DNA of 64,000 nucleotides from an uncultured virus (IMG/VR IMGVR_UViG_3300037504_000379) (taxonomy: Duplodnaviria > Heunggongvirae > Uroviricota > Caudoviricetes > Crassvirales), in IMG/VR virus record IMGVR_UViG_3300037504_000379; one strand, written 5' to 3'. This document shows, piece after piece, positions 1,652-60,073 of this stretch. The notes beneath the pieces were generated by a model that did not search any database, was not told where the DNA came from, and saw only the letters and a list, made by a program, of their open reading frames with translations. How positions within the stretch are numbered: the stretch's first letter is position 1; the number at the start of each line of letters is the position of its first letter. Both the position numbers and the translations under genes were made by a program.

Positions 1652-2152
1652 TCATAACACATTATAAACAACATTAAAACGATTGTTTATAATTATGTTA
1701 TAGTGCATTTGCCACCGCACTACGGCAGTTCAATATAAAAACCCCCACGCTCAACCATGACCTCCATTTCAGCAATTTCTTCTTTGTCATACCCTTCTTC
1801 AACCAGTTCCGTTTTGGTTCTAAGTTCACAAGGGTCATCATCTCCAGTCCAAATCAAATGACTGTTACTGGTTTTAGCATCACCCAGCCCACTCAATGTT
1901 TTATTACTCGCAACTACTATTAAATCTTGGTTAAGTTGCTCTTTACTCATTTTGTCAAGTTTCTTTTTTAAGTCTTTAAGTTTCATCTTTTTACTTTTTA
2001 TGCCTACCCGCAAAAAACGCACTATAACAAGCGGTCATAAAAAATTGCGGGGTCAGCGGTTAATATTTAAGTTACTACATTTATTTAAGTTTATTGGTTA
2101 GCGGAGTTTGTGCGGTTAAATCCGCAACTTTTCATACCGCCAGCCGTTATGA
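1652..2152 (-). mobile_element. hairpin-bounded gene cassette, locus A
   Basis: Minus strand: TCATAAC-GG long hairpin, GTTATAGTGC [ORF] GCACTATAAC, short hairpin with TCGTTTTAATG loop, GTTATGA. Confidence 0.8.
1720..1986 (-). CDS. cassette cargo, hypothetical protein (probable ATG at 1986)
   Basis: MKLKDLKKKLDKMSKEQLNQ...; the longer start in the ORF track lies inside the repeat. Confidence 0.7.
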   Translation of the reverse strand: MKLKDLKKKLDKMSKEQLNQDLIVVASNKTLSGLGDAKTSNSHLIWTGDDDPCELRTKTELVEEGYDKEEIAEMEVMVERGGFYIELP

Positions 2153-4564: not shown

Positions 4565-4604
4565 AATTTATTCATTTACTGATTTTAAAATTTATAATTA
4601 CTTC

Positions 4605-5180
4605 GCTAACAATGCATAAACAGAATTAAAACTCTGTTTATACGGATGTTATGGCACAAGCTACTGCAAGTAACCAAGTGCCTTCGCTTTTTCCTGAATA
4701 GCTTTCATATCACTTTCAGGGTAGCCCCAGTGTGGGCAGTATAATCCACCGTATCCATTATTGTGGTTTGTGTATTCACCAGTCTTTATATATTCGATAA
4801 AATCTTTTACCAATGCCCACATTGTCCCGCCATGATGCCATCCTTTTGGTGGGTAACCGTTTTTTGTATGCAAGTACATTTTTGTTTTATTATATTCATT
4901 ATGCATGTAAAGCCCACCCGCTTTCTGGAAGATGTAAGCCATATCTGCGTCTTTTTTGTACAGGAAAAACTCCCGCCCACGTAGGGCGATTTCCTTTATT
5001 ATTTCATTTACTATACTGATTCTACCTTCTTTAGTGTCGCCAGTGCCTAACATCGCATCATACGGCATGGCCTTGGTTTCTACTTGTTTGTCACTTTCGT
5101 TTTTCATATCTAATGGTATTTACTGTTTGATAATTTCGTTCTTTGTATTCGGCCACGACCGCATATGCGTAGCCGTTAGC
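4605..5180 (-). mobile_element. hairpin-bounded gene cassette, locus B
   Basis: Minus strand: GCTAACGG hairpin, GTTAGGCAC [ORF] GTGCCATAAC, short hairpin, GTTAGC; terminal hairpin nearly identical to locus C. Confidence 0.8.
4661..5107 (-). CDS. cassette cargo, hypothetical protein
   Basis: 148-aa ORF starting inside the hairpin loop; HGGT and WGY motifs. Confidence 0.75.
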   Translation of the reverse strand: MKNESDKQVETKAMPYDAMLGTGDTKEGRISIVNEIIKEIALRGREFFLYKKDADMAYIFQKAGGLYMHNEYNKTKMYLHTKNGYPPKGWHHGGTMWALVKDFIEYIKTGEYTNHNNGYGGLYCPHWGYPESDMKAIQEKAKALGYLQ

Positions 5181-17300: not shown

Positions 17301-18380
17301 GTGATTACTTGCGATAGGAATGTTCTCATAAGGCTTTGCAATTTCTTCATAGGGAATTGATCTATACCCCCCTGTATTATAAAACCTGTAATAATAATCT
17401 GTATCATCTACAAGAGATGTTTCCTCAACAGAGGCAGACACGCTTCCAGCATCTACAGCAAACACATTGTTTGGGTTCGTTTTATCAATAATAGCAATTT
17501 CATACCAATCCTTCTTATTGCCCTCTCGTGCTGCTATTCTAACTTTTTCCACTAAACTACTGCCACTGTTAAACAATATGTCAATATAATTATCCATTGT
17601 GGAAGACCCCAATGTATTTCCGTCATAAGAAAACATTGAAACATTGTAGTTAATATCACTTATATTGCCAAATGCGGATTTTAAACTATCTTCATAAATA
17701 TATTGTTCCCGAAACTGAAACACCTTCCTATAAACATTGCTGCCAGTAAAATCAGAATCATACCCATACTCTGTCGTAATTCTATACAACGGGGGCTTCT
17801 TAATCAAAGACAGCGTAGAAGGTAATATTGAGCTATAAGAAGGTTCTCCTTTATTGTGGGTGTAATTGTACGCCTTAATAATATTTACTGTCTTTGGAGA
17901 GCCACCCCTCTCAAGCCAACAAAGCCTATCACCAATTACTGTTGCATCTATAACATCACTAGAATAATCCAAAGCTTGCTCAGCTTTTAAAATAGGAACA
18001 TATATTTGACCTGCTACAAAAAACTCATATATACTTCCCCTATCCTGTTCAGCTAAAAATAAAATAATACCATTTCTCTTGGGGTCTTTACAATGCCCCA
18101 CTATTTTTGACGCAGGAATATTGCCATCTTGCTCGGTAGTTGTTACTGTATCTAAATCATCTACTACATAGCTGCCTGAATTATCCACAAGAAAAGTAGA
18201 GGCTACGGTTTCTACGTTCTCGTTCCCTGGTGAATTAAGAATTACTCCATCTTCACCTACACCAATCTTTATACCGTTGACTATATAGTGATAATCTCCC
18301 TCCTGAATATATTTATCATCACTATCATAATCCATGCCTCCTATACCCGTGAGACTTTGTATTTGTTTACCATTTGCCAT
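14394..18380 (-). CDS. tail stabilization / nozzle protein
   Basis: 1328 aa, beta-rich, GGMDYDSD start; crAss-like order after the ring proteins. Confidence 0.7.
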   Translation of the reverse strand: MANGKQIQSLTGIGGMDYDSDDKYIQEGDYHYIVNGIKIGVGEDGVILNSPGNENVETVASTFLVDNSGSYVVDDLDTVTTTEQDGNIPASKIVGHCKDPKRNGIILFLAEQDRGSIYEFFVAGQIYVPILKAEQALDYSSDVIDATVIGDRLCWLERGGSPKTVNIIKAYNYTHNKGEPSYSSILPSTLSLIKKPPLYRITTEYGYDSDFTGSNVYRKVFQFREQYIYEDSLKSAFGNISDINYNVSMFSYDGNTLGSSTMDNYIDILFNSGSSLVEKVRIAAREGNKKDWYEIAIIDKTNPNNVFAVDAGSVSASVEETSLVDDTDYYYRFYNTGGYRSIPYEEIAKPYENIPIASNHMGAYGNNSLIFGQNQTDYDDIDIDMSMSPRYVARPDEPYEIVISIDNVALQNSSQIAVDYKFDLSNLPATILAGTIINIKAYTSVSFTRDADGSDGTLYAPDPGGLGSNSVDNIVDDFIVLDTDVAKDTFGTNILTYIAFDENDGFDYEKNVSKSPITTLDSGETGSETSASYNSTTDVVTMTYVYDISENITLPGQVVTPEKTDSYAWILSESVKPSLKRGRTRQGAIQYIDDYGRRGEPLTNSACEFRVKDLSDPGIGKGQVKLDVAINHSPPSWASYYQILMSYQDHQFIQVPILYSMPYLDEKGSSTGYIALLLGLTTSVLQDVVEEDIEELEKEINELETKKNNLFKNAGKSIKPWKLVSPFTAIQEGGRLLGLWGDQNNLDQGAVDRANEEIRSLERKVELKKYELTNLYKRALQNVKQYQFSKNDRIRLLKAGNTNADSIADYDSTNYVDDVLDLQVEDVLDSIDYADDYTTETPTTYSGLWLKVKPPNQDGFTEVVQKSKWDNALIEVYRPSYSDGGNIFYETSYIYPITAGAHSDTSFTITPNDCWYKLRPFYTGKSINDTGNKVVDWVEDSHITHDFKSDSYDIGNVFVKTTTEKGIKQSNLVYTNNHIEGTEINGLSQADLNNVIYLTEEYGDIYGIWKSGNTLKVVQAKKITSFYPQGNEMFGRMRQSQTDFGTVYPKSMVDSPYGYRYGFDVYNGVVWRDTNNGVYNISGKSVVRGGVSDYKMGKYFRDVAKEVRDNGILKGSDDVIAAYDEKYELVYFSFLQDNLDSSVVPYRTVMFHEPSNRWVGFLDIQPTGYAYGYNALLSSNESDGNIYLHGRGEDTSGTANYNNFYGTQKNFEAEFVANIMPGIQKVFDAMAIHATTQFSVPEMTIAKNSTTINEKFSKLNTNHFVLQDGVYKSEILGNMKTTSDTAKSRELYNGESMRGYAMKFKLRSSDSEKFELFKVDVYVDPYAT

Positions 18381-38991: not shown

Positions 38992-39036
38992 TCAATTAAT
39001 TTTATTTTTGTATATTTGTAGCTGAATCATAAGCAC

Positions 39037-39147
39037 GAGGGGCGCGAAATGTTAATAAGCAAAAATTTTAGTACAACAACAATAATCGCCAATTGGCTAA
39101 AGGCTCAAGGTTTTTTAGGTTCGCGCCTCTCCCTTGGGTCTTTTTTT
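39037..39147 (+). ncRNA. candidate structured RNA / attenuator
   Basis: Two interleaved 12-bp stems plus a U-tract, just downstream of a TATATTTG promoter motif. Confidence 0.4.
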
Positions 39148-39794
39148 ATGCTTATCCAGGCAATCGTGCCACAACAACCAAACTTTACACCGCCCTAACA
39201 TACAGCTTCAACCACAGTGAAGAGAAATGCACTGTGGAACTCGTTTAGCTGTATTCATAGAGTATAAACCAAACAGCCCCTTCAGTTGAGACAACCTGAA
39301 TAGCCGTTTAAGCACATTGGCAACTTGGTGCTTAAACATCCTGATGCGACCAAGAGAGCAACTCAGGAAGGCAGGGGCGAAGTTGCAAGGGCTTTTGTTC
39401 TTCGAAGACTTGTTTGTTGAGCCTAACCGAAAGGTTAAATTCAAAAGACGTAAACATCAGTTCTTTCTTTTCTTTTTTTAGGGGGTAGGGGGTTGTTTTT
39501 TTCTTTTCTTTCTTTCTGACTTGTTTACTTTGTGTTGTAATTAATAGAGTATAATAGTGAATTATATAATGTCCCCAAAGGAATAAGAGATAAATACACA
39601 TAATAGATTAATATATAAAGAAAAGGTATGATAATAGCTTTTCTTCCTTTGTGGACTATACAGAATTAATAATATTATTAACAGACTTATATATAATTAG
39701 ATAATATTATTAATTAGTAATAATAAAATTAAAGATAAGGGGGTGATATGGAGTTAACTGGCGTAAAACAAGATAAATTTTAAACACTTAAATT

Positions 39795-40351: not shown

Positions 40352-40770
40352 GCTAACGGCTACTTATATGAGTAGTAGCCGATTTGAAATGCGAAACTTT
40401 AAAATAAATATAAATGTTAAACCGAGTGATAAGCCCTAATAATTGCACTACAACGGCTATTACTTATATAAATTGTTGTAGTGCGTTTTTTATATGAAAA
40501 CTTACAAATGGCACACACCAGAGGCACACTCTGATAATACCGAAACAATGAACGACTATTTAGATAACCACCTACCCGAATGTTTTAAGCCGATATTCCA
40601 AGATGGGACTTACGCTGAAATATGCAATAAAAACACAGGACAGATATTTGCAGTACACGCCTCTGGTGACGGTGATTTCTGCAACCACAAAGTAGAATTT
40701 GAGTTTATTCACTAAATGCACTACAACATCCGTATAAACAGAGTTTTAATTCTGTTTATATATTGTTAGC
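40352..40770 (+). mobile_element. hairpin-bounded gene cassette, locus C
   Basis: GCTAACGG 17-bp-arm hairpin, GTTGTAGTGC [ORF] GCACTACAAC, short hairpin, GTTAGC. Confidence 0.85.
40494..40715 (+). CDS. cassette cargo, hypothetical protein
   Basis: 73-aa ORF exactly filling the space between the inverted repeats. Confidence 0.75.
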   Translation: MKTYKWHTPEAHSDNTETMNDYLDNHLPECFKPIFQDGTYAEICNKNTGQIFAVHASGDGDFCNHKVEFEFIH

Positions 40771-40805
40771 GAACAATAATAAAATAATTTTTAAAAGGAG
40801 TAATT

Positions 40806-41288
40806 ATGAGTTTTAGTAAATTTACAAGACAAGTTATTTGGTTTGTTGTTCTTACTGGTGTATTAATAACATCATTTCTTTTGAATATGGGTTCTAATTT
40901 TAATGTTATAGTTTGGACAAGAGTTATACAGGTTATTGTTATTGCATCTTTGTTTATTTGGAGCATTGGTTTTACTGAAACGTTGAGATATGTTACTGCA
41001 TGGAGATATAAGATTGTAGTAGATCGTTTTGATGTTAAAGCAAAATACCTGACATCTTTTTGGCTGTTTATACCTTATTGGAGGCCTATTAACGAAAAAT
41101 TAGAAAGTATGGATATGCAAAACTTGTTTGGGGCAACACGTACCAGTTTTTATTCTACGGAGGTCACATATAGGAATAGGGATGATGCTATTCAGGCAGT
41201 CAATGAACATAAACAAGAAATAAAAGAAAATAGAGCTAAATGGCTTAAAAAGCCAAAGCCTGAAAAGAAAACAGTAGAGTATATGTAA
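40806..41288 (+). CDS. membrane protein
   Basis: Two N-terminal hydrophobic helices. Confidence 0.7.
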   Translation: MSFSKFTRQVIWFVVLTGVLITSFLLNMGSNFNVIVWTRVIQVIVIASLFIWSIGFTETLRYVTAWRYKIVVDRFDVKAKYLTSFWLFIPYWRPINEKLESMDMQNLFGATRTSFYSTEVTYRNRDDAIQAVNEHKQEIKENRAKWLKKPKPEKKTVEYM

Positions 41289-41294
41289 TTATAT

Positions 41295-41370
41295 GGGGTA
41301 TGTAGCTCAATTGGCTTAGAGCACCAGGTTGTGGTTCTGGAGGGTGCGGGTTCGAGTCCCGTCATACTCA
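41295..41370 (+). tRNA. tRNA-His (GTG)
   Basis: Cloverleaf: GGGTATG/CATACTC acceptor stem, TAGCTCAATTGG D-arm, CCAGG-TTGTGGT-TCTGG anticodon arm, GGTTCGAGTCC T-arm; G-1 present; no encoded CCA. Confidence 0.9.
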
Positions 41371-41393
41371 CAAACTTTTAAAAATAAGTTATT

Positions 41394-41858
41394 ATGAAAG
41401 TGATATTTACAGATAGTTTTTGGAAGAGTTTAGATAATATCCGCAAAGCAGAAAACCCCTGGTATTTTAAATATTGGGAACACAAGTGGTATGATTTTAA
41501 ACATGCCGTTAAAATGCTTTGGGTGTACTGTCCTATGGTTGTTAAAATGAGAGATTGGGATTATGCTTATATGGTGAGAATGATGCGCTTCCAGCTCAAA
41601 AGACTGCGAGATCATATCGAGAAATATAGTATAGCCACTGATGAGTATAAATATCCTAAAATAGAGGCTATTGATCAGGTGCTTGAGTATATGGATAATC
41701 ATCTTGAGGATAAATTTCTGATGAAAGCTGATTATGATAAATGCGAAACAGAGGAAGAAAAACTTAAGCTTACAGAGGAGATAAATCGCAAAGACCAAGA
41801 GAATTGGGATAGAATGTTTGCAATGATGAGAGCTAATATGAGAAGCTGGTGGGACTAA
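41394..41858 (+). CDS. hypothetical phage protein
   Basis: RDWDY motif and C-terminal SWWD. Confidence 0.75.
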   Translation: MKVIFTDSFWKSLDNIRKAENPWYFKYWEHKWYDFKHAVKMLWVYCPMVVKMRDWDYAYMVRMMRFQLKRLRDHIEKYSIATDEYKYPKIEAIDQVLEYMDNHLEDKFLMKADYDKCETEEEKLKLTEEINRKDQENWDRMFAMMRANMRSWWD

Positions 41859-41943
41859 TTGTTTAAAACATGTTAATATTTATTTCTTGTTTTCCTTTTT
41901 ATTTGCGGATTAATAGCTTATATTTGATTTAAAATAATTTAGT

Positions 41944-42939
41944 ATGGCTAAAAAGAATACTTCCACAAAAGGAGAAAATCTTCAGAAGGCAATAGATAAT
42001 CTCAACAAAACTTATGGTCAGGGAACAATAATAAAGTTAGGGGATGCTCCGGTGAGCGACATCCCCTCTATTGATTCTGGTAGTATTGCGTTGAACCAGG
42101 CATTAGGTGTTGGTGGTTATCCAAGGGGGAGGGTTGTAGAAATTTATGGTGCTGAATCGGCTGGAAAAACAACATTAGCCTTACATGCCATAGCACAGGT
42201 ACAGAAAAATGGAGGCAGGGCTGTAATCATTGATGCGGAACATGCATTGGATACAGAATATGCAAAAAAACTCGGTGTTAATGTTGGTGAACTATTTATT
42301 AGTCAGCCTAGCGATGGTGAGAAGGCATTGGAGATAGCAGATCAATTGGTGCGTTCTGGTGAAATTGATATAGTTGTCATTGATAGTGTAGCAGCATTAA
42401 TTCCTAAAGCTGAATTAGAGGGAGAGATGGGTGACTCTCGCCTTGGGTTACAAGCTCGATTAATGTCACAAGCTATGAGAAAATTGTCTGGAAGCATAAG
42501 CAAAACGAATACGTGCTGCATGTTTATTAATCAACTTAGGGAAAAAATAGGCGTTATGTTCGGGAGTAACGAGACCACAACAGGCGGAAATGCCCTTAAG
42601 TTTTATGCATCAGTACGACTTGATATAAGAAGAATTGGTCAGATAAAGAATGGCGAACAGGTAGTGGGAAACAGTACAAGAGTGAAGGTGGTGAAGAACA
42701 AGGTTGCTCCTCCTTTTAGGAAGGCTGAATTTGATATTATGTATGGAGAAGGAATAAGTAGGGCAGCAGAGTTGATTGATTTGGGAGTGCAACATGGAGT
42801 GATTAAGCAGAGTGGCTCTTGGTATTCTTATGGAGAAACCAAACTTGGTCAGGGGAAGGAGACTGTTCGCCTTTTGTTTAAAGATAATGAGGAGTTAGCT
42901 GAGGAGATTGAAAAGAAAATATTGGACAAAATGAGCTAA
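41944..42939 (+). CDS. recA: recombinase RecA
   Basis: [47 protein letters not shown]. Confidence 0.98.
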
Positions 42940-43568
42940 CGGACAGCAATATGAAACGTGTGGAATTTAGCACTAACTTTACTATGAAAAACAACAGTAA
43001 TAATTAAATATTTTGAGCGTGGGATATATTAGTAAAAAACAAAGAGAAGAAATTAAGCAAAAGTATGATGGGCTTTGTGCTTATTCAGGAACGCCACTTG
43101 AGGATGATTGGCAGGTTGACCATGTAAAGCCACTTGTTAGAAATTGGTATGATGGCACTTCAATGTTTCCAGATGCTCATTGTGATGAAAACCTGATACC
43201 ATGCCAAAAGATAATAAACCACTACAAGGGTTCATTGGACTTGGAAACATTTAGAAACTGGTTTTTAGGTGGATTGCACGAGCGAATGGATAAGCCAAAG
43301 AATCCGAGAACCGAAAAATCAAAACGCAAAAAAGAATACTTGCAAAAAGTAGCTTCTTATTTTGGCATAACTCCAACAAAGCCCTTTAACGGAACTTTCT
43401 ATTTTGAGAGCGTGGGAAAAGAAAAAATTTAATTATGGTGAATTTAGCACAAACGATACTACGAAGCACAGCACTAAGCATGTTTTATATTGCATGTTGT
43501 AGTGTCGTTTTAATGCACTACAACGCTTGTGTAAACAGTCGTTTTAATGCTGTTTACACTGTGTTAGC
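42935..43568 (+). mobile_element. hairpin-bounded cassette locus D (cargo in loop plus empty cassette)
   Basis: GCTAACGGACA-GCAATATGAAACGTG [HNH gene] CATGTTTTATATTGC-AT-GTTGTAGTG-TCGTTTTAATG-CACTACAAC, short hairpin, GTTAGC. Confidence 0.85.
43013..43432 (+). CDS. HNH endonuclease (cassette cargo)
   Basis: CAYSG...WQVDHVKP...NLIPC...NHYKG; start codon uncertain (TTG). Confidence 0.8.
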   Translation: MSVGYISKKQREEIKQKYDGLCAYSGTPLEDDWQVDHVKPLVRNWYDGTSMFPDAHCDENLIPCQKIINHYKGSLDLETFRNWFLGGLHERMDKPKNPRTEKSKRKKEYLQKVASYFGITPTKPFNGTFYFESVGKEKI

Positions 43569-43592
43569 GAATTATAACTTAAAATATATTGT

Positions 43593-44390
43593 ATGAGAGA
43601 AAAAGGAGATAGATATAATGAGGGAAAATTAAGGCTTGATCTTATTACTCCACAAATGATGAAAGGGCTTGGGAGAGTTCTTACACACGGGACACGCAAA
43701 TACAGTGATAGAAATTGGGAGATCGGGTTGGAGTGGACGGGTGTCGCGGCTTCCCTTAAAAGACATCTATTAGCATTTGAGGAAGGAGAAGATTATGATA
43801 GTGAATCAGGACTTTTACACATAGAACATGTGTTGGCTAATGCAGGATTTTTGGCTACATATTATGAAACAAGACCAGAATATGACGATCGCATTAAAAG
43901 ACGATTTAAAATAGCTCTGGATATAGATGGTGTACTAGCAGATTTTAAAGGAGCTTATTGTAAGAGACATAACATACAACCAAAAAATAATCATTGGCAT
44001 TTTACCTATCTATGGAAGCAGGAGGACGGGTTGTTTGAAGATAAAGATTTTTGGACCAATAAGATACAACCGTTAGTTGATGGAACTAACTTATCAATAG
44101 AGCCTGTATGTTATGTAACTTCCAGGAGATGTTCTGTAGAATGGACGAAAGAATGGCTTGAAAAGCACGGATTCCCTTGTGAACCTGTTTATACTAATCA
44201 AGCCAGCAAAGTAGAGGTGTTGAAGGAGATGTTTGAAAGAGGAGAGGTTGACATCTTTGTGGACGATGCATATAAACATTTTGTGGAATTAAATAACGCA
44301 GGAATCCCTACGTATTTATTTGACCGTCCTTATAACAGGAAGTATGATGTAGGGTATAAAAGGATTTATGATTTAAGAGAACTAGCATGA
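43593..44390 (+). CDS. dATP/dGTP diphosphohydrolase (DUF5664) fused to a HAD 5'-nucleotidase
   Basis: GKLRLDL, G.RKY..RNW, D.ESGLLH..H; then DIDGVLAD, VTSR, FVDD, PYN. Confidence 0.8.
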   Translation: MREKGDRYNEGKLRLDLITPQMMKGLGRVLTHGTRKYSDRNWEIGLEWTGVAASLKRHLLAFEEGEDYDSESGLLHIEHVLANAGFLATYYETRPEYDDRIKRRFKIALDIDGVLADFKGAYCKRHNIQPKNNHWHFTYLWKQEDGLFEDKDFWTNKIQPLVDGTNLSIEPVCYVTSRRCSVEWTKEWLEKHGFPCEPVYTNQASKVEVLKEMFERGEVDIFVDDAYKHFVELNNAGIPTYLFDRPYNRKYDVGYKRIYDLRELA

Positions 44391-44635
44391 AATCAAAGGA
44401 TAGGAAAATAGCAGAGCTGTTTTATTATAAGCTTAAAGAATATTCTTCAACAGGGAAAGACCTAACGCTTACAGAGATGGCGGGATTTAGGAGATGGATG
44501 ATTGACTATTTGAGGTCACATAAAGGGGATAGAAATATAGTTATGAAGGGCGAGGGTAAAGATAAAATAGAGTCATTTGTGGACGCCTACATAAAGAGTA
44601 GTGGTTTACCCCTTCGACCAGATAAAAAGAGCTAA
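44387..44635 (+). CDS. hypothetical protein
   Basis: ORF in operon. Confidence 0.65.
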   Translation: MKSKDRKIAELFYYKLKEYSSTGKDLTLTEMAGFRRWMIDYLRSHKGDRNIVMKGEGKDKIESFVDAYIKSSGLPLRPDKKS

Positions 44636-44646
44636 AAATTGAGCAT

Positions 44647-44937
44647 ATGGATAATTATAGGACAGAAAAATTAAAGCAATATCTTGTAGGATTAGGAGTG
44701 CAGTACAAAGATGTTGATGCTGTAATAAGTAATTATACGAGAGATATTATGATGGACTCGTACAACAAGGGATTCAGCAGGTGCAAACGTATTAACCAGG
44801 CGTGTAGAATATTTAATCGTAATTTGGCGATTAATGATTTTGAGGAATTTTATAATCGCTGGGTAAATACTGTTTCGATAGATATGCTGCATGAGTTTCA
44901 GAATATGTATTATGATAACCTTCCCATTATAAGTTAA
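44647..44937 (+). CDS. hypothetical protein
   Basis: ORF in operon. Confidence 0.65.
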   Translation: MDNYRTEKLKQYLVGLGVQYKDVDAVISNYTRDIMMDSYNKGFSRCKRINQACRIFNRNLAINDFEEFYNRWVNTVSIDMLHEFQNMYYDNLPIIS

Positions 44938-44952
44938 ATTAAAATTAAGTGT

Positions 44953-46125
44953 ATGGATAAATTAACACCTGAAAAGATAAAGCAGGCAAAAAAACTGTTT
45001 GAAAAAAATCCTGGTATAGGGAGATATAAGTTAAAGGATGAACTTGACGTAAGTGAGATGACAGCTAGGATTTTGGCTTTTGCCTTAAATAATCCTGATC
45101 TTATGTCTGAAGATACAGATATGGCTATTAAATTCCGCAAAAAAGAAGTGGAGCTTAGGCAGGTAAAGTCTAATTACAGGAAGCTGCTAGATAGATACGA
45201 TGAAAAAGAACAGCAGAACGATATACTTCTTGGCATTCAGCCAGAGGATGACATTTATCCTGAAATAAAGGAGGTGACTGATGGCAGTAAAGGAAGTACC
45301 ATTGCGATAGCGGTACATAGTGATGTTCATGCTGAAGAAAAGGTGGAACGAGATGTTGTCCTTGGGGTGAATGAATATAATCCTGATATTTGTAAGGCGA
45401 GAGAGGAATTGTTTTTTCAAGACCTCCTTAAAATTGTAAAGCATCACAGGAAAAACTATAAGATAGACACTCTTGTGCTTGGTCTTCTTGGGGACATGAT
45501 AAGTGGTTATATTCACGAAGACCTGCAAGAGAATAACTTTATGTCTCCCACTGAGGCAGTAATGTTTATAAAAGAATTACTTGTTAGTGGTATTAAGTTT
45601 TTGGCAGATAACGGAGATTTTAAGAAGATTGTTATTCCTTGTGCTAAAGGAAATCATGGAAGGACGACAAAGAAAAAAAGGTTTTCTACTGCTTATAAGA
45701 ACTCATATGAATGGATGATGTATCATGATATGAAGCAAACATTTAAGTCGTTTGGCGGATATGAGCATGTAGAATTTATTATTCCTAAAAGTGAGTTTAC
45801 CTACGTTAATTCATTTGATAAGAGCCTGCTTTTTTCTCATGGAGATCATTTTGGTTTTGCAGGGGGTGTTGGTGGTTTTCAGGTTCCTTTGAGGAGATGG
45901 GCTTTAAATCAGCAGATGGTACAGCACTTTGATATGGCTTTTATTGGTCACTGGCATCATGTCATAAACCCCACAGAGAATGTATGGGTTAATGGTAGTG
46001 TTGTAGGTCATACGCCTTATGCTTCTGGTCATAGTATTCAACCTACTACTCCGGCACAGTTATTAGTGTTACAGCATCAGAAGTATGGCTTTATAGCACA
46101 TAATAAGATAGTGTTGAATCGCTAA
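44953..46125 (+). CDS. calcineurin-like metallophosphoesterase with N-terminal HTH/coiled coil
   Basis: SDVH, LGDMISG, GNHGR, HGD, GHWH. Confidence 0.85.
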   Translation: MDKLTPEKIKQAKKLFEKNPGIGRYKLKDELDVSEMTARILAFALNNPDLMSEDTDMAIKFRKKEVELRQVKSNYRKLLDRYDEKEQQNDILLGIQPEDDIYPEIKEVTDGSKGSTIAIAVHSDVHAEEKVERDVVLGVNEYNPDICKAREELFFQDLLKIVKHHRKNYKIDTLVLGLLGDMISGYIHEDLQENNFMSPTEAVMFIKELLVSGIKFLADNGDFKKIVIPCAKGNHGRTTKKKRFSTAYKNSYEWMMYHDMKQTFKSFGGYEHVEFIIPKSEFTYVNSFDKSLLFSHGDHFGFAGGVGGFQVPLRRWALNQQMVQHFDMAFIGHWHHVINPTENVWVNGSVVGHTPYASGHSIQPTTPAQLLVLQHQKYGFIAHNKIVLNR

Positions 46126-46265
46126 CGGACAGCGGTATGATGCGGGGCTTTGGATGTGTGTCGGCCTTGTGCGGCACTGCATTATGACCGCATGTTAGCT
46201 GTCTGGGCGGTCAAGTTGGTACACCGCTGATTAAAAGTACCAACGTAGTAATTTATTTTTTAGGG

Positions 46266-46931: not shown

Positions 46932-47042
46932 ACGGTCGTAGCCTTGCAGCTAACGGAAAGCTATATGCACATCGTAGCGATAGCGGAGTTGTGTATATAG
47001 CATGTTGGCACACGTTAAATTTAAAACCAAATACTAAACTAT

Positions 47043-47333
47043 ATGGATAAACAATATTTAATAAATCAAGACACTGCAGAATACAACCACGAACTTTTAA
47101 TAGAATGTGGGTGGGAATCTGAACATGAGAAAAATCATATTTACTCATGGGAAGAATATTCTAAAAGTTGGTATATTCAAGACCAAGACGGAAGTGGATA
47201 TGAGGTAAAGATTTCTCTTAGACAACATGAAAACTATGCGCTGCTTTATGTAAATGGACAGTGGGTAGGGAGAGCACTTTATTTAAGTGATGCTGAATTA
47301 GTAGTCAATGCTATAAAAACAGCTTGCACTTAA
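47043..47333 (+). CDS. cassette cargo, hypothetical protein
   Basis: 96-aa ORF between GTTGGCACAC and GTGTGCCTAAC. Confidence 0.75.
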   Translation: MDKQYLINQDTAEYNHELLIECGWESEHEKNHIYSWEEYSKSWYIQDQDGSGYEVKISLRQHENYALLYVNGQWVGRALYLSDAELVVNAIKTACT

Positions 47334-47430
47334 TGTGTGCCTAACGGACAGCAATATGAAACGTGCGACAAATACGCAGGAACGATAATACGAAGCACCA
47401 CAGTAATAATTAAATATTTTTTTTGAAGGG

Positions 47431-48276
47431 ATGGAAATAAACAAAAATTATAATGAATCAAATCTTGAAACAATGGCAAGAATGCCTGATTGTTTTGTGG
47501 ACTTAACTGTAACTTCTCCACCTTACGATGGATTAAGAACATACAACGGTTATTCTTTTCCATTTGAGGATATTGCAAAAGAACTTTATAGGATAACTAA
47601 AGAAGGTGGTGTAGTGGTATGGGTAATTGGTGATGCAACAACCGATGGAAGTGAAAGTGGCACAAGTTTTAGACAGGCTTTATTTTTTCAATCTCTTGGT
47701 TTCTTTATACACGATACAATGATTTATGAAAAAAATGGTTCTGCTTATCCCGCTAATGATAAAAGCAATAGATATAGCCAAGTTTTTGAATATATGTTTG
47801 TGTTTAGTAAAGGGAAACCAAAAACACACAACTTAATAAAAGATAGAAAAAATAGATGGGAAGGAAGTAAGACTTTCGGCAACCAAAGTAACAGAAAACA
47901 AAATGGTATTTTAGAAAAAAAAGGAAGTAGGGAAACTCCTGAATTTGGTTATAGATATAATATTTGGAAATACAATAATGGTTATGGTTATAGTACAAAA
48001 GATGAAATAGCATTTAAACATCCTGCAATATTTCCTGAAAAATTAGCATACGACCATATAAAAACCTGGACAAACGAAGGTAATTTGGTTTACGATTGCT
48101 TTATGGGAAGTGGAACAACGGCAAAGGCAGCTATAAGTGCAAATAGAAATTGGATAGGAAGCGAAATAAGTGAAGAATACTGCCAAATAATAGAACAAAG
48201 GCTTGAACCATTACGGAACAATCTTTTTTCTAATTGCTTTGAAAAAGCAAAAGCGGGCGGGCAAAAAAATATTTAA
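47431..48276 (+). CDS. DNA N4-C/N6-A methyltransferase, beta class (cassette cargo)
   Basis: VTSPPY, HPAIFP, DCFMGSGTT, GSEIS. Confidence 0.92.
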   Translation: MEINKNYNESNLETMARMPDCFVDLTVTSPPYDGLRTYNGYSFPFEDIAKELYRITKEGGVVVWVIGDATTDGSESGTSFRQALFFQSLGFFIHDTMIYEKNGSAYPANDKSNRYSQVFEYMFVFSKGKPKTHNLIKDRKNRWEGSKTFGNQSNRKQNGILEKKGSRETPEFGYRYNIWKYNNGYGYSTKDEIAFKHPAIFPEKLAYDHIKTWTNEGNLVYDCFMGSGTTAKAAISANRNWIGSEISEEYCQIIEQRLEPLRNNLFSNCFEKAKAGGQKNI

Positions 48277-48444
48277 TTATGGTCAAACTTGTAGAAACAT
48301 TGAAACGAAGCACTACACTAAGCATGTTTTATATTGCATGTTGTAGTGTCGTTTTAATGCACTACAACGAAGGCATAAACAACGTTTTAATGTTGTTTAT
48401 GGCATGTTAGCGTCTCCAAAGAAGAAAACCCTAAAACTCTATCT

Positions 48445-50603: not shown

Positions 50604-50853
50604 GATGAGTAATTTAATTTTACATACCGACCCACTATTGTTGATACTTATAATAGCATTGATTAATTCCATAATGGATAAAATACGGTTTCGGTATGAG
50701 CTAACGGTGTTTTCAAGGTTGGGAGCTGATTGGTGGTTTGATCCATCTGTAAGCTGGAAAAACAAACATAGGTAGAAGCCTACATGGTTATTTAAAACTG
50801 TACTTGTGTGGGTGACAGATCTATGGCATTTGTTACAATTTATAATAGAATGA
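50604..50853 (+). pseudogene. disrupted phage membrane-protein gene, 5' part
   Basis: MSNLIL...IMDKIRFRY...WWFDPSVSWKNKHR*KPTWLFKTVLVWVTDLWHLLQFI; in-frame TAG; a plausible C-terminal remnant WLFWGIVFEINYSIKF follows the IS at 52058. Confidence 0.55.
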
Positions 50854-52057
50854 AGCAAATACACAAGTCATATAAGTATCGAATTTACCCAACAAAGGAA
50901 CAAGAATCCTTGTTGAGTAAACACTTTGGGCATTGTAGATTTGTGTTTAATAGGTTCTTGAATGAACGTAAAGAGAAATATCTAAATGAAAAAACTTCTC
51001 TTAACTATTACGATAATGCAAGAACTTTAACCGAATTAAAAAAAGATGAAGAGTTTGTTTGGTTAAAAGAAGTTAATTCTCAATCATTACAAGCGTCAAT
51101 TAGGAATTTAGATATTGCATACAAAAACTTTTTTAACAAGCAAAATAAATTCCCAAGATTCAAATCAAAGTACGATAGACAGAGTTTTAAAGTACCACAA
51201 AACGTGTTAGTTGAAAATGGTAAACTTGTAATACCTAAATTCAAAGAAGGAATTAAGTTAAACCTTCACAGAGAAATGGAAGGTAGCCCTTTGTTTGCTA
51301 CCATATCTAAGTCAACAACTGGTAAATATTATGTTTCAATTACTTGTGAAGTTGAACATAAGTCATTTAAAAAGACTGGTAAATCGGTTGGGGTAGATAC
51401 TGGTATTAAAGAACTTGCTATACTTTCAGATGGGAGTAGTTATGAAAATATTAAATCACTTAAAACCAAATTAAAGAAACTCAAATACGAGCAAAGACAG
51501 CTTTCTAAAAAACAAAAAGGAAGTCAGTCAAGAAATAAACAGAAAATAAAACTTGCTTTAGTACACGAACAAATCACAAATATTAGAAAAGATTACCTAC
51601 ACAAAATATCAACTGAAATTGTCAAAAACCACGACATAATATCAGTTGAGGACTTGGCGGTTAAGAATATAATGAAAAATCATTGTTTAGCACAAGCAAT
51701 GAGTGATGTTTCGTTGGGTGCATTTTACACAATGCTTGAATATAAATCTAACTGGAATGATAGGCAATTTGTAAAAATTGATAGATTCTTTCCAAGTAGC
51801 AAGACCTGTTCAGGTTGTGGTTGGATAAAACAAGATTTAACTCTTTCAACGAGAGAATGGACTTGTGAATCTTGTGGTGAAATCCATGATAGAGATGTGA
51901 ATGCAGCAAAAAATATATTAAAGCAAGGTATAAACATATTGTCTGGTTGTGGGATGCAGTCGGACACCAAACAAAAACGGGATAAGGCGTTACCATTAGG
52001 TGAGTCTGCGACCCCCGAAGCCCAACCTATCGGCTCTGCCGTGGGTGGGTAGTTCAC
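50840..52057 (+). mobile_element. tnpB-only IS200/IS605 element
   Basis: tnpB followed by right end GAAGCCCAAC...GTGGGTGGGTAGTTCAC; no tnpA; left end not identifiable. Confidence 0.75.
50850..52052 (+). CDS. tnpB: RNA-guided nuclease TnpB (IS200/IS605 family)
   Basis: YKYRIYPT, GVDTG (RuvC-I), VEDL (RuvC-II), SSKTCSGCG/CESCG zinc finger, DRDVNAAKNI. Confidence 0.95.
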   Translation: MKQIHKSYKYRIYPTKEQESLLSKHFGHCRFVFNRFLNERKEKYLNEKTSLNYYDNARTLTELKKDEEFVWLKEVNSQSLQASIRNLDIAYKNFFNKQNKFPRFKSKYDRQSFKVPQNVLVENGKLVIPKFKEGIKLNLHREMEGSPLFATISKSTTGKYYVSITCEVEHKSFKKTGKSVGVDTGIKELAILSDGSSYENIKSLKTKLKKLKYEQRQLSKKQKGSQSRNKQKIKLALVHEQITNIRKDYLHKISTEIVKNHDIISVEDLAVKNIMKNHCLAQAMSDVSLGAFYTMLEYKSNWNDRQFVKIDRFFPSSKTCSGCGWIKQDLTLSTREWTCESCGEIHDRDVNAAKNILKQGINILSGCGMQSDTKQKRDKALPLGESATPEAQPIGSAVGG

Positions 52058-52151
52058 TGGCTGTTTTGGGGAATAGTGTTTGAAATAAATTATTCTATTA
52101 AATTTTAATTAATTATTTGTTTTTGTTATTAAATTTTCTTATTTTTGAAGT

Positions 52152-52349
52152 ATGGATGTTATATGGATAGATGAGCATTTAAAAGATGTCCGCAAAGAAT
52201 ATAAGGAAACATATGGGCTTTATATGGAGGCTGAAAGGTATGAAGACAGGCAAAGCCTCTACATTGATCTTTTACGCATAAGAGACTATTATAATCGTTT
52301 TAAACTATCCCTATATAAGAACAATTTTAAATTTTACCATTTAAATTAA
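52152..52349 (+). CDS. hypothetical protein
   Basis: 65-aa ORF after TATTTTTG motif. Confidence 0.6.
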   Translation: MDVIWIDEHLKDVRKEYKETYGLYMEAERYEDRQSLYIDLLRIRDYYNRFKLSLYKNNFKFYHLN

Positions 52350-52355
52350 TTAATT

Positions 52356-52931
52356 ATGCCACACAAAAAACAACACATCACCTCAGACTTTATGTCTTGG
52401 GAAGAAAGTAAACGAGTTATTAACTTGCTTTATCGGGACGAAGATTATTGGTATTGTCTTCTTTTTACTATCGCCACACATTTTGGGCTTCGCATTAGTG
52501 ATGTCAAAAAATTAACTTGGGATGATCTTATTCGCAAAGAGAAAGTAGTGCTTAATGAGAAGAAAACTGGTAAGAAGAAGATTATTGAGACACCGGAAAA
52601 CATTAAAGATTTTGTACTCACCCTTTATGGAAAAATAAAACCAAAGGGTAAATATATTGTCAGTGTTAAACACACGCAGACAATAAATCAAAAGCTAAAG
52701 AGACTTAAAGAGAAGTATAACATAGACATAGGTAATTTTTCTACCCACACATTTCGCAAGACGTTTGGAAGGCATTATTGGGAGAAGAATGGCAGGAGTG
52801 AATACGCCCTGTTTATGCTTATGCAACTTTTTAATCACAGTAGCTTGGATACAACCAAGGTGTACCTTGGAATCAGGCAGGATGAATTTAATCAGATATA
52901 TAGTAATATAGCAGAAGAGGCAATTGTATGA
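52356..52931 (+). CDS. tyrosine recombinase (catalytic domain only)
   Basis: GLRISD, EKKTGK, HTFRK, FNHSS, TKVYLG = R-K-HxxR-H-Y. Confidence 0.92.
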   Translation: MPHKKQHITSDFMSWEESKRVINLLYRDEDYWYCLLFTIATHFGLRISDVKKLTWDDLIRKEKVVLNEKKTGKKKIIETPENIKDFVLTLYGKIKPKGKYIVSVKHTQTINQKLKRLKEKYNIDIGNFSTHTFRKTFGRHYWEKNGRSEYALFMLMQLFNHSSLDTTKVYLGIRQDEFNQIYSNIAEEAIV

Positions 52932-53332
52932 AAGGAATTATTAAGCAGAACATTCGTTTAGCACCGACAAGGTTTTTTCTTGACGTGGTGCTTGGAGATT
53001 ACGAGTTTTTTAAGGAAGTGCTGAAGAGTGATAAATATTATGAAGAAGGGGCTTTCGACTTTGAGGAAGTAGAGATAAGTAAAAGTAGTGAAGGAGCTAT
53101 TTGGACTTTAATAGATAAGGTGAGCGAGGAAGATGACAAAAACGATGTTACCAAGTTTCTGATGTGGGTAAAGGATAAGGATGACGTTATCACTATAAGT
53201 CATGAGGCAATACATATAACGTGGGAGATAAATCGTTATACGAATATTAGGATAGCTGAAGATGCGCAGGAGTTTCAGTGTTATATGCATGATTATATTA
53301 TGGAACAAGTGCTTAGTTTGTCTAAGGGCTAA
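52928..53332 (+). CDS. hypothetical protein with HExxH motif
   Basis: ISHEAIH...QEFQCY. Confidence 0.65.
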   Translation: MKGIIKQNIRLAPTRFFLDVVLGDYEFFKEVLKSDKYYEEGAFDFEEVEISKSSEGAIWTLIDKVSEEDDKNDVTKFLMWVKDKDDVITISHEAIHITWEINRYTNIRIAEDAQEFQCYMHDYIMEQVLSLSKG

Positions 53333-53776
53333 CGGAAAGCTATATGCGCCTGTTTTAATGGCGTATATAGCATGTTGGCGCAAGTACGGTTTTATAAACA
53401 AAAAAATATTGATATGAAAAAAATAAATCAAAAAAAATTAAGCCGCAATGCCTATAAATATAATAGGCGTAAGTTTAAAAAAACAACAAAAAACTTTATT
53501 AAGGAATTAAAGAAACATTTGAAAAAGAGAAGTAAAAACGGTGATACTTCCTTTAGTGCCGAAATTGATGCTGATAAAATTTATGCAGAATCATACATGT
53601 TAGCTGTTAGATGGTTAAAACGTTATACAGATTTAGATATTACAATCTATGAAAATTCTGATGTAAATGTTCATGGAAAAAAATATGTAAATAGTATGAA
53701 CGTACACATATATTGGTAGTATTTGCGCCTAACGTTGGTATAAAATGCGTTTTAATGCATTTTATAGTATGTTAGC
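53328..53776 (+). mobile_element. hairpin-bounded gene cassette, locus F
   Basis: GCTAAC-GGAAA-GCTATATGCGCC/GGCGTATATAGC-AT-GTTGGCGCAAGTAC [ORF] GTATTTGCGCCTAAC, short CGTTTTAATG hairpin, GTTAGC. Confidence 0.85.
53414..53719 (+). CDS. cassette cargo, basic hypothetical protein
   Basis: MKKINQKKLSRNAYKY...; the upstream ATG in the ORF track is part of the repeat. Confidence 0.7.
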   Translation: MKKINQKKLSRNAYKYNRRKFKKTTKNFIKELKKHLKKRSKNGDTSFSAEIDADKIYAESYMLAVRWLKRYTDLDITIYENSDVNVHGKKYVNSMNVHIYW

Positions 53777-53841
53777 ATTATTTAATTTCCTTTACATAAC
53801 AAAGCTGCTTGGTTAAGAAAATGATAAAAAACTTAAATAAG

Positions 53842-58263: not shown

Positions 58264-58459
58264 CCTCTATTCAACTGAAACAACAAAGGATGTTAAACGT
58301 ATAATGTTTAACGTTGCTGAGGCAGAATACCGGACTAAACTTGTTCTTTTAAAATATAGAATTGAGCCGGATAAATTTAAACGAGCTGCTTCTCTTTTGT
58401 GGAGACTTGTATTAAATTATTATAGTCCGCAAAAGGTAAAACCAACGAATTTATTTTAA
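58256..58459 (+). CDS. small hypothetical protein (paralog at 59887-60042)
   Basis: Lies within the 214-bp duplication. Confidence 0.6.
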   Translation: MYNLYSTETTKDVKRIMFNVAEAEYRTKLVLLKYRIEPDKFKRAASLLWRLVLNYYSPQKVKPTNLF

Positions 58460-58490
58460 ACACTTAAAACCCATTATTATGAAAACACAA
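58277..58490 (+). repeat. 214-bp imperfect direct repeat, copy 1
   Basis: Matches 59860-60073; the 3' ~70 bp are identical. Confidence 0.9.
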
Positions 58491-58856: not shown

Positions 58857-58974
58857 CGGGCGAGTGTATGGCAATGTAAGCCACGCACTAAACTTTGAAT
58901 TGAAACAATAACCTAACTGGCTTATTTGCTATACACATTGTTAGCAACTGGGCGGTTTTAAAAACGAAAATATT

Positions 58975-59268
58975 ATGATGTACGCAAGTAAAATAGAAGT
59001 AAAGTATGAGCCACAAAAAGTCAGATATCAACGAGAAGTAGAGCTACCCGATAGACTACTTACACTTGAAGATATAGGTAAGCACCTAAAGGAAGGTGAA
59101 AAGTTTGTATTCTTCCAACGTGAAGAGGGTGGGCTTGGACTACCTGTTGATTACATAAGCATACATGGTTACAGGCTTGAAACTGATGAGGAAGTAAAAG
59201 CAAGGGTAGCGAAAGCAGAAAAGTATAACGAAAACTACGAGAAGTTTCATGCGAAGTACAGAAAGTAG
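58975..59268 (+). CDS. cassette cargo, hypothetical protein
   Basis: 97 aa; YRLETDEE motif. Confidence 0.7.
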   Translation: MMYASKIEVKYEPQKVRYQREVELPDRLLTLEDIGKHLKEGEKFVFFQREEGGLGLPVDYISIHGYRLETDEEVKARVAKAEKYNENYEKFHAKYRK

Positions 59269-59383
59269 CCTTGTTGCTAACGGCACACAGCTATGAGTAG
59301 TGCGGGAATTACAGCACTGACTTTGATACGAGTATTAACCGCTCCCGCTTCTTTTTTAAGCGTGGGCATAAATATAAATAAAG

Positions 59384-59716
59384 ATGAAAAAACAGATTAC
59401 AGTAAAAGAAAGAAACAGTTGGGAAGGCGAAACATTTAATTATGTAATATATGTTATTCCCGAAGAAGAAAACCAAATTCGTGAAAAATGCGAGAAATAT
59501 GGCGATGGTAGTTTAACGGTGCAAGAAACCAACTACACCGATGAAGAAATAAAAAAGATGAATGCAGCATCCAGCAACTTATATATGGACTTTATAGCAC
59601 CGTATGAATTAAAGGGAAACGCACTAAAAAAATGGGAAGAATTTGGTGATTGCTTTTACAAAGGTGTTGGTTTAACAAAATTAAAAGCGTTGGAAGAAAA
59701 AGAAGCACAGCACTAA
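59384..59716 (+). CDS. cassette cargo in hairpin loop, hypothetical protein
   Basis: 110-aa ORF. Confidence 0.7.
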   Translation: MKKQITVKERNSWEGETFNYVIYVIPEEENQIREKCEKYGDGSLTVQETNYTDEEIKKMNAASSNLYMDFIAPYELKGNALKKWEEFGDCFYKGVGLTKLKALEEKEAQH

Positions 59717-59859
59717 CCTTACTACGAGCTACGACACCCGCATTACTCATAGCTGGTGTTGTAGCATCGTTTTAATGTACTACAACATATGAATAAAGAA
59801 AGGTGTTTTTAAAATTGCGGTAAAATGAAACAGAAAATTATTGACAGAATAGAAGAAAC

Positions 59860-60073
59860 GAAACAACAAAGGACGTTAAACGTATAATGTTTAATGTTGC
59901 TGAAGCTGAATTTAACAGTAAGCTTGTTCTTTTAAAATATAGAATTCAACCGGATAAATTTAACAGAGCCGCCTCTCTTTTATGGAAACTTATATTTAAT
60001 TATTATAGTCCGCAAAAGGTAAAACCAACGAATTTATTTTAAACACTTAAAACCCATTATTATGAAAACACAA
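59860..60073 (+). repeat. 214-bp imperfect direct repeat, copy 2
   Basis: Matches 58277-58490. Confidence 0.9.

Follow-up and report, generated by a model that had tools for sequence, protein, structure and literature searches.

What is the role of an inverted repeat which has only 11 nucleotides (nt) between its arms, in a genome where similar inverted repeats surround a gene? The question is raised by a 29-mer in the uncultured virus record IMGVR_UViG_3300037504_000379 of IMG/VR, a crAss-like phage. We call the window the whole stretch of 64,000 nt which was analysed. The first-pass annotation had taken the 29-mer for an empty gene cassette, with CGTTT/TAATG as the junction where bare open reading frames (ORFs) are captured or lost. 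Our answer is different: the 29-mer is probably formed by R' and R'', the sites at the two ends of a gene cassette of the integron type, folded together over 11 nt, and is a member of a family of attC-like sites found in Bacteroidota and in their phages. Such cassettes structure the replication genes of this phage, and they are also present in many other Bacteroidota phages and in bacteria. The observations concern the anatomy of the units, the covariation of their arms, their boundaries at AAC, bacterial arrays (some of them beside a Xer/IntI-like recombinase) and a strand bias in folding.

The 29-mer and its loop

The sequence of the 29-mer is GTTGTAGTG-TCGTTTTAATG-CACTACAAC: a GTT-arm, 11 nt and the complementary arm ending in AAC (arm'-AAC), with no gene between the arms. 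The two exact copies and the variant which had been announced were confirmed; the 29-mer has two exact matches in the window and none in 100 shuffles.

43496..43524, plus strand: 29-mer copy 1, GTT-arm (R'), 11-nt TCGTTTTAATG, arm'-AAC (R''); closed cargo position
48340..48368, plus strand: 29-mer copy 2, identical to copy 1
59758..59786, plus strand: variant hairpin GTTGTAGCA-TCGTTTTAATG-TACTACAAC, arms 8/9

The 10-mer CGTTTTAATG is found exactly seven times, at 1672 (minus strand), 43506, 43540, 48350, 48383, 53748 and 59768 (0.25 in shuffles), and all seven copies lie in hairpin loops. The same loop also closes the neighbouring hairpins 43530-43558, 48374-48401, 53739-53766 and 1662-1692 (minus strand). 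In 202 kb studied with no selection on the loop, four of the seven perfect short hairpins have exactly a TCGTTTTAATG loop, with three different arms. A leader peptide starting at the ATG of the loop was considered and rejected: the frame and the stop differ among the copies at 40713, 43512 and 48356.

The filled versions of the hairpin had been described at three loci, C, A and E; the arms and borders which we read at each of them are as claimed. Two more filled pairs are present in the window.

40475..40727, plus strand: filled hairpin C, arms 9/9, leader CGTTTTTTAT, ORF 40494-40715 (73 amino acids, aa), TAAATG
1697..2028, minus strand: filled hairpin A, GTTATAGTG-CGTTTTTT ... AAATG-CACTATAAC, ORF 2022-1720
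47004..47345, plus strand: filled hairpin E, GTTGGCACA ... TGTGCC(T)AAC, one bulged T, ORF 47043-47333
53374..53733, plus strand: filled pair GTTGGCGCA ... TGCGCC(T)AAC, ORF 53372-53719, its start codon overlapping the site
58940..59281, plus strand: filled pair GTTAGCAAC ... GTTGCTAAC (9/9), ORF 58975-59268

Anatomy of the units

The small-gene regions of the window are divided into units bounded by ...AAC. On the coding strand the intergenic plan is ...YAAC / 2-5 nt / L'' stem, loop, L' stem / 2-4 nt / GTTR-arm ... arm'-YAAC. The succession ...YAAC, spacer, stem-loop, spacer, GTTR... is found at 12 or more intergenic sites, and YTAACGG is seen 17 times against 7.7 expected. The stop codon of the upstream ORF is often the TAA inside CTAAC, as in RecA.

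Each GTT-arm pairs with the next downstream ..AAC arm, not with its upstream neighbour. The complementary pairs are GTTGTAGTG/CACTACAAC, GTTAGCGAA/(A)TCGCTAAC, GTTAGCTG/CAGCTAAC, GTTAGCAAC/GTTGCTAAC and GTTATAGTG/CACTATAAC. Throughout the window the arms pair 9/9 in four cases, 8/9 in three, 7/9 and 6/9 in one each; two further full matches have one bulged T, GTTGGCACA/TGTGCC(T)AAC and GTTGGCGCA/TGCGCC(T)AAC. Between the arms there may be one small ORF, several genes or 11 nt alone.

In the three arm-loop-arm copies of the window the gene of the unit sits between L'' and L': an HNH nuclease, an N6/N4 DNA methylase and a 110-aa ORF. The cassettes which had been called empty are thus not empty. 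The units and sites of the window are the following.

42941..43524, plus strand: whole unit ending in copy 1; GG, L'' 42943-42960, HNH ORF 43013-43432 (phrog_2118 HNH), L' 43479-43495, 29-mer; repeats D2/D5/D6
47346..48368, plus strand: whole unit ending in copy 2; same L''/L' framework, N6/N4 DNA methylase ORF 47431-48276 (PF01555)
59282..59786, plus strand: whole unit ending in the variant hairpin; 110-aa ORF 59384-59716 between L'' CACACAGCTATGAGTAGTGCGGG and L' CCCGCATTACTCATAGCTGGT
40765..42940, plus strand: multi-gene unit GTTAGCG ... GAGCTAAC with two ORFs, tRNA-His and RecA, whose stop TAA is within CTAAC
43563..46126, plus strand: multi-gene unit GTTAGCGAA ... ATCGCTAAC (8/9) with four ORFs (dATP/dGTP pyrophosphohydrolase, exonuclease and two others)
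40352..40490, plus strand: noncoding element of about 130 nt, from GCTAAC/GG to GTTGTAGTG-CGTTTT, 87-94% identical in contigs with differing flanking genes
43516..43569, plus strand: mini attC-like site; CACTACAAC, 5-nt spacer, 9-11 bp stem, TCGTTTTAATG loop, 4-nt spacer, GTTAGCG; repeat D3
48360..48412, plus strand: mini attC-like site; stem CATAAACAA/TTGTTTATG, loop CGTTTTAATG
40719..40771, plus strand: mini attC-like site following ORF C
53724..53777, plus strand: mini attC-like site GCGCCTAAC ... GTTAGCA
1652..1705, minus strand: mini attC-like site in the minus-strand gene block
4604..4657, minus strand: mini attC-like site GTGCCATAAC ... GTTAGCG; its L hairpin is the same as 40733-40760
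46119..46202, plus strand: attC-like site CGCTAAC-GG-L''...L'-GTTAGCT
46946..47012, plus strand: attC-like site AGCTAAC-GGAAA-12 bp stem-AT-GTTGGCACA
53325..53382, plus strand: attC-like site with a TGTTTTAAT loop
58849..58948, plus strand: attC-like site CTATAAC-GG ... GTTAGCAAC

Both flanks of the methylase unit are 89-95% identical in another contig (L009), which does not have this ORF in common with the window. In Cellulophaga phage phi39:1 we have found an empty hairpin followed by an L hairpin. When ten window sites are folded as DNA they give an R stem, an asymmetric internal loop (5 nt versus 2-4 nt), an L stem of 9-12 bp and a loop. Compensatory changes separate the stems of these sites: the structure is kept, the sequence is variable. 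The folded L stems have no bulged bases; conserved G.T mismatches are seen instead, and two R boxes have a bulged T.

Covariation of the arms

We have scanned IMG/VR with the pattern GTT-N6-TCGTTTTAATG-N6-AAC, which leaves the arms unconstrained, and found at least 124 viral loci. Among the matches listed the arms pair 6/6 in 99, 5/6 in 22 and 2/6 in 3, and they belong to at least 17 arm types. The same pattern has 129 matches in GTDB genomes: the arms pair in at least five of six positions in 61 and in four or fewer in 68. Most of these 68 are found in an unrelated, partly non-Bacteroidota context and are chance background; a few have flanks of the family type and are mixed-arm hairpins. The family loci, 368 kb in all, contain 324 perfect 9-nt GTT..AAC pairs whose partners are within 1.5 kb of each other, versus 54 in shuffles. 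Seventy-two unique GTT..AAC pairs surround a single ORF which takes up 80% or more of the insert.

AAC and GTT are invariant, and each of the 17 arm types listed has a purine, A or G, as the fourth base of its GTT arm. The full consensus (R'' RYYYAAC, R' GTTRRRY) is reached by GCCTAAC at 47339 and 53727 and by GTTAGGC in one contig (L119). A scan with the 15-mer GTTGTAGTGCGTTTT gave 106 matches, which are mostly due to chance in coding DNA, and only the approximately 17 which are family members by their flanks were used.

There are two further classes of filled units. In five loci (L001, L010, L066, L130, L145) the arms are GTTATGnnn...nnnCATAAC and the ORF goes from the ATG of the left arm to the TAA of the right arm, so that the gene fills the unit exactly. 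In other loci (L384, L402, L412, L417, L013, L002, L061) an insert of about 100-107 nt starting with (C)CGAAGGGAAC recurs, enclosed by GTT/AAC arms of several types. Most ORFs would not fit into this length; the insert may be a small RNA or peptide cassette.

Boundaries of the units

The contigs which have in common the element of about 130 nt preceding GTTGTAGTG (40352-40490 in the window) show 82-95% identity among themselves; the window's own group is 87-94% identical to the window. Identity extends from just past the upstream AAC to +15..+28, and the flanking genes are unrelated. In three contigs (L053, L061, L066) the shared block is exactly -120..+398, from AAC to AAC. We also compared 163 unique "empty" sites, which give 13,203 pairs: the two sites of a pair resemble each other over 30 nt or more on the upstream side in 121 pairs, and over the same distance on the downstream side in 8. 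In 116 of the 121 upstream-similar pairs the resemblance ends at most 5 nt after AAC.

Since the homology blocks begin and end at AAC, the unit boundary is AAC on the coding strand, which is G/TT on the opposite strand. The pattern suggests an exchange of whole units with the crossover at G/TT, placed with a resolution of about 3 nt by comparison of contigs. The view that the arms are boundaries of cassette type, already held in the first-pass annotation, is borne out.

Bacterial arrays and strand asymmetry

The chromosome of Formosa sp. A9 and a 470-kb contig of Gillisia contain tandem units with homogeneous sites of about 130 nt, which belong to the phage family. Their cargo includes CdiI and WapI immunity proteins, and the ORFs are found on the strand opposite to the phage case. 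The Formosa array has one unit of the phage type, which ends in GTTGTAAAA-TCGTTTTAATG-TTTTACAAC.

Folding as DNA favours the same strand of the site in 7 of the 10 sites of the window and in 8 of the 9 bacterial ones. As the bacterial genes run in the opposite direction, the asymmetry follows the site and not transcription. This argues for a DNA-level and against an RNA-level structure.

Recombinases

The Gillisia array is flanked by a recombinase of 375 aa.

L286:7499-8623, minus strand: Xer-like tyrosine recombinase beside the cassette array

It scores 236 bits with NF040815, above the cut-off of the model, and 207 bits with TIGR02249, under the cut-off of 265. Homologs are found beside hairpins or arrays at 10 further loci on 9 contigs (L324, L117/L013, L055, L292, L125, L124, L198, L184, L164, L231, where L117 and L013 come from one contig). 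In six viral loci the recombinase gene begins 40-110 nt after the last AAC, behind TA(T/C)nATATAT(C/A)AAC; on the canonical strand the order is recombinase, attI-like sequence, array. When the Gillisia recombinase is aligned to VchIntIA (2A3V), residues 186-246 of the VchIntIA chain face only 18 residues and are unmatched, so that the IntI-specific insertion is absent. A recombinase of this kind, beside an attI-like TAnnATATAT, may represent a separate integron-like lineage.

The window has a recombinase of its own. One AAC-bounded unit, 50706-53333, contains TnpB, then a 65-aa ORF, then a tyrosine recombinase of 191 aa which has only the catalytic domain (52356-52931). The TnpB, at 50808-52052, is full-length (NF038281, 438 bits). 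This 191-aa recombinase was considered as a candidate for the enzyme acting on the sites, but no close relatives of it were found beside other arrays.

How the sites may work

If the sites are of the integron type, R' would be G/TT-arm and R'' arm'-AA/C, folded back with only 11 nt between them. On the phage coding strand a unit has the order AAC/ spacer, L'' (loop or ORF) L', spacer, GTT-arm (loop or ORF) arm'-AAC/. On the opposite strand the order is that of a canonical cassette: /TTRRRY, cargo, R'', L'', loop, L', G/. With the canonical cassette on that strand, the phage ORFs are antisense to the usual cassette orientation. Arm and border together form a stem of about 13 bp (C-G, G.T, T-A, T-A inside the 9-bp arm), which we take as the R box of a folded single strand. 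When no gene is present between R' and R'' this stem closes on TCGTTTTAATG. Units would move by single-strand exchange at AA/C (G/TT), catalysed by a tyrosine recombinase either of the host or phage-borne and Xer-like.

There is a link with experimental work. Qi et al. 2023 (PMC9892861) describe CALINs (clusters of attC sites lacking integron integrases) in virulent phages; they predicted two attC sites in Polaribacter phage P12002L, and IntI1 recombined P12002L_attC2 at G/TT. We find that P12002L has the site family described here, in the form GCTAAC-GG-stem-TCGTTTTAATG-stem-ATT-GTTAGGC beside methylase genes.

Several points weigh against an integron-type origin. The P12002L site which Qi et al. 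recombined may be a different one from that described here. GTTGTAG misses GTTRRRY and the R consensus is only partly met; no extrahelical bases are seen in the folded sites. Cargo between L'' and L', as well as essential genes (RecA, primase) in units, is atypical of integrons. The Gillisia recombinase is without the IntI insertion, as described above, and no integron integrase was found in the 64-kb window, whose 191-aa tyrosine recombinase has only a remote similarity to that of the arrays. Three complete relatives were searched: two have no tyrosine recombinase and one has a recombinase of the array type. Finally, the exchange of units is deduced from the comparison of sequences. We nevertheless regard this origin as the likely one.

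Is the hairpin a blank slot for genes?

The first alternative is close to the original proposal. The hairpin would be a preformed blank slot, bare ORFs would enter or leave it at CGTTT/TAATG, and empty and filled hairpins would be two states of a capture and loss reaction which creates cassettes. We think this rather unlikely, but it accounts for a good number of observations.

One of them is the length of the inserts. In a scan selected on the right border only, counting unique cases with perfect arms, the inserts have either 11 nt (4 cases) or 153-380 nt (8 cases) and none are in between: they are bimodal, as had been predicted, and form no continuum. A further class of about 103-107 nt begins with CCGAAGGGAAC and has arms with one mismatch. 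The borders of the filled copies are also conserved. In the same scan the left border is CGTT in 7 and CATT in 1; a second scan, selected on the upstream element and the left arm only, gave 17 metagenome loci of the slot C element and all 17 continue with CGTT after the left arm. The right border is AATG in 15 of 16 filled copies.

At least 14 unrelated ORFs of 46-140 aa fill this slot within one framework which is 87-95% identical. They start right after a common leader, CGTTTTT(G/A)AGCG, and 11 of 12 have the tail (T/A)G(T/A)GCGnnGGC(T/A)AATG. Leader and tail have in common a direct repeat of about 10 nt, TGAGCG(A/T)(T/A)GG, so that the first four bases and the last few codons are common to unrelated ORFs. 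The imperfect repeat around the variable ORF can be followed in the individual loci (L427-L443, window 40484-40718), where the leader is ..TGAGCG-ATGG and the tail TGAGCG-TAGG-CAAATG. A blank slot would also explain why one loop sequence is found in the "empty" hairpins of at least 17 arm types and in L hairpins. Moreover, in five hairpins (L126, L186, L304, L341, L287) the left arm is of one known type and the right arm of another, as expected from joining in the loop.

The borders themselves tell a different story. In 63 ORF-filled pairs, taken with no selection, they are CGT/AATG in 21 and AGT or ATGT/ATT in 16, with few mixed cases. Either class agrees with N-G-T...A-T-N', in which the stem is lengthened by 4 bp including a G.T pair. 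Since the classes are complementary, we read the borders as an extension of the stem and not as a fixed junction, and we conclude that CGTT/AATG is part of the recombination site. Other facts disagree with a blank slot as well: some ORFs span from the ATG of one arm to the TAA of the other, and the breakpoints between contigs fall at AAC and outside the loop. For the slot C element, none of 3 cases in IMG/VR and none of the 17 metagenome loci was an empty allele; no empty and filled pair was found at one locus. The hypothetical intermediate, a loop with a single repeat, gave no match in our search. Lastly, in chromosomal integrons many unrelated ORFs behind one homogeneous attC are already the rule.

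The proposal of an ORF loading junction thus stands in part. Discrete inserts and at least 14 unrelated ORFs in one slot agree with it; CGTTT/TAATG is not demonstrated as a point of breakage or joining. Capture at the level of the loop is possible. In its strongest form the TCGTTTTAATG-closed hairpin would be a blank cassette, a recombination site made in advance, whose loop gains or loses exactly one ORF: the leader ends in ATG, the tail provides the stop, and the ORFs of the slot would be direct products of the long-sought reaction by which cassettes are formed, taking place in Bacteroidota phages and driven by a Xer-like recombinase without the IntI domain. We hold this strong form to be doubtful.

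Regulatory hairpins and transposons

A second alternative is that the hairpins are regulatory: terminators, RNA-processing sites or modules similar to PeSL (promoter early stem-loop), shuffled only by homologous recombination between conserved short sequences. In both halves of the window the sites lie between genes and point in the direction of transcription; the conserved leader might have a function in translation, and the conserved flanks (about 140 nt left, about 25 nt right) would permit allele swaps driven by homology. PeSL modules have been published for T4-type phages (PMC2839356, PMC4122927). However, the hairpins are not followed by a T-run. Terminator-like sequences (6 versus 6.9) and sigma-70 promoter-like sequences (57 versus 57) are at the level of chance, in a scan which does not cover Bacteroidota promoters. 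Arms agree within a unit and differ between neighbouring units, and they keep their complementarity at distances of 150-2500 nt. The favoured folding strand is unchanged in bacterial arrays with reversed genes. A regulatory role as the whole explanation is therefore improbable.

The ends of IS200/IS605 insertion sequences (IS) are hairpins and the elements move as single strands, and a TnpB lies in the array region, but it is most improbable that the repeats are non-autonomous, palindrome-associated elements of this type tied to TnpB 50808-52052: Pfam detects no Y1 transposase (PF01797) in the window ORFs scanned, only TnpB, arm sequences differ between units, the family is present in phages and bacteria with no nearby TnpB, and the units end in GTT/AAC cores, not in IS605-type ends.

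Other features of the window

The crAss-like nature of the phage is apparent in the minus-strand ORF 14397-18380, which matches the crAss muzzle-protein family. Large minus-strand genes occupy 1-38.5 kb; the GC skew changes sign near 38.5 kb and the plus-strand replication module extends from 39.7 kb onward. The latter codes for RecA, an HNH nuclease, dATP/dGTP pyrophosphohydrolase, an exonuclease, two DNA methylases, primase, TnpB, the 191-aa tyrosine recombinase, a GIY-YIG nuclease, a sliding clamp and tRNA-His. No near-identical phage records were found for the window, and a distant search gave only Cellulophaga phage phi39:1. A scan of the window with Rfam at the gathering threshold detected only tRNA.

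Three peculiarities remain. Between the divergent gene blocks there is a noncoding stretch, 39030-39460, which is G+C-rich, strongly self-complementary and has no Rfam match at the same threshold; it could be a phage non-coding RNA. Beside it, at 39005-39029, there is what we take to be a promoter-like motif of the Bacteroidota type, TAnnTTTG. A direct repeat of 214 nt (58277-58490 and 59860-60073, 90% identity, 1.6 kb apart) overlaps small ORFs. Inside the RecA gene, at 42376-42469, ARAGORN detects a tRNA-like fold whose anticodon would have four bases; this is most likely a false positive.

Comparison with known systems

Bacterial integrons are the main known cassette arrays; for phages the published record is limited to a few predicted attC sites. 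Our searches of the literature on the motif, on crAss-like phages together with attC and on stem-loops of Cellulophaga phages found nothing about this site family. In the crAss-like phage studied here much of the replication module, RecA and primase included, is arranged as such units, and the site family is common to well over a hundred viral contigs and to Flavobacteriaceae chromosomes. The turnover of phage genes is thereby linked to integron-type recombination. The family is regular and abundant: its fixed loop, covarying arms, leader and tail and many ORFs make the origin of cassettes testable in the isolates phi39:1 and P12002L.

The similarity with integrons starts with the sites. As in attC, inverted core sites end in ..AAC and start with GTT.., and an L''/L' stem stands behind an unpaired spacer. 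As in integron cassettes, the start is complementary to the unit's own R'', the ORF stops inside R'' and the unit boundary is G/TT. The arrays are tandem and run one way with many small unknown ORFs, the structure of the sites is kept while the sequence varies, and bacterial arrays with immunity-protein cargo adjoin a tyrosine recombinase. The presence of the family in P12002L relates it to the phage CALINs of PMC9892861.

The differences are also clear. Unlike integrons, the phage ORFs are antisense to the canonical orientation and essential replication genes lie within units. Pairing of the R box extends to about 13 bp with a conserved G.T, cargo is possible between L'' and L', a constant TCGTTTTAATG loop closes whichever hairpin is empty, and extrahelical bases are not seen. 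A complete integron would have an adjacent intI with the IntI-specific domain: it was not found in the window, and the linked recombinase is without the insertion.

Two other known systems are close to the hairpins. PeSL modules (PMC2839356, PMC4122927) are also short conserved intergenic modules which flank small variable ORFs and accompany gene replacement; however, they are direct repeats which combine a promoter and a terminator, whereas here we have inverted repeats specific to each unit, with GTT/AAC cores, which are also present in bacterial arrays. ORF-less or gene-less integron cassettes have reportedly been assayed for promoter activity (PMC6557892; bioRxiv 10.1101/2023.11.21.568050). 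Like them, the 29-mer is gene-free between recombination sites; it differs from them in that the phage cargo position is a fixed 11-nt loop, and the gene of the window unit is found elsewhere in the site.

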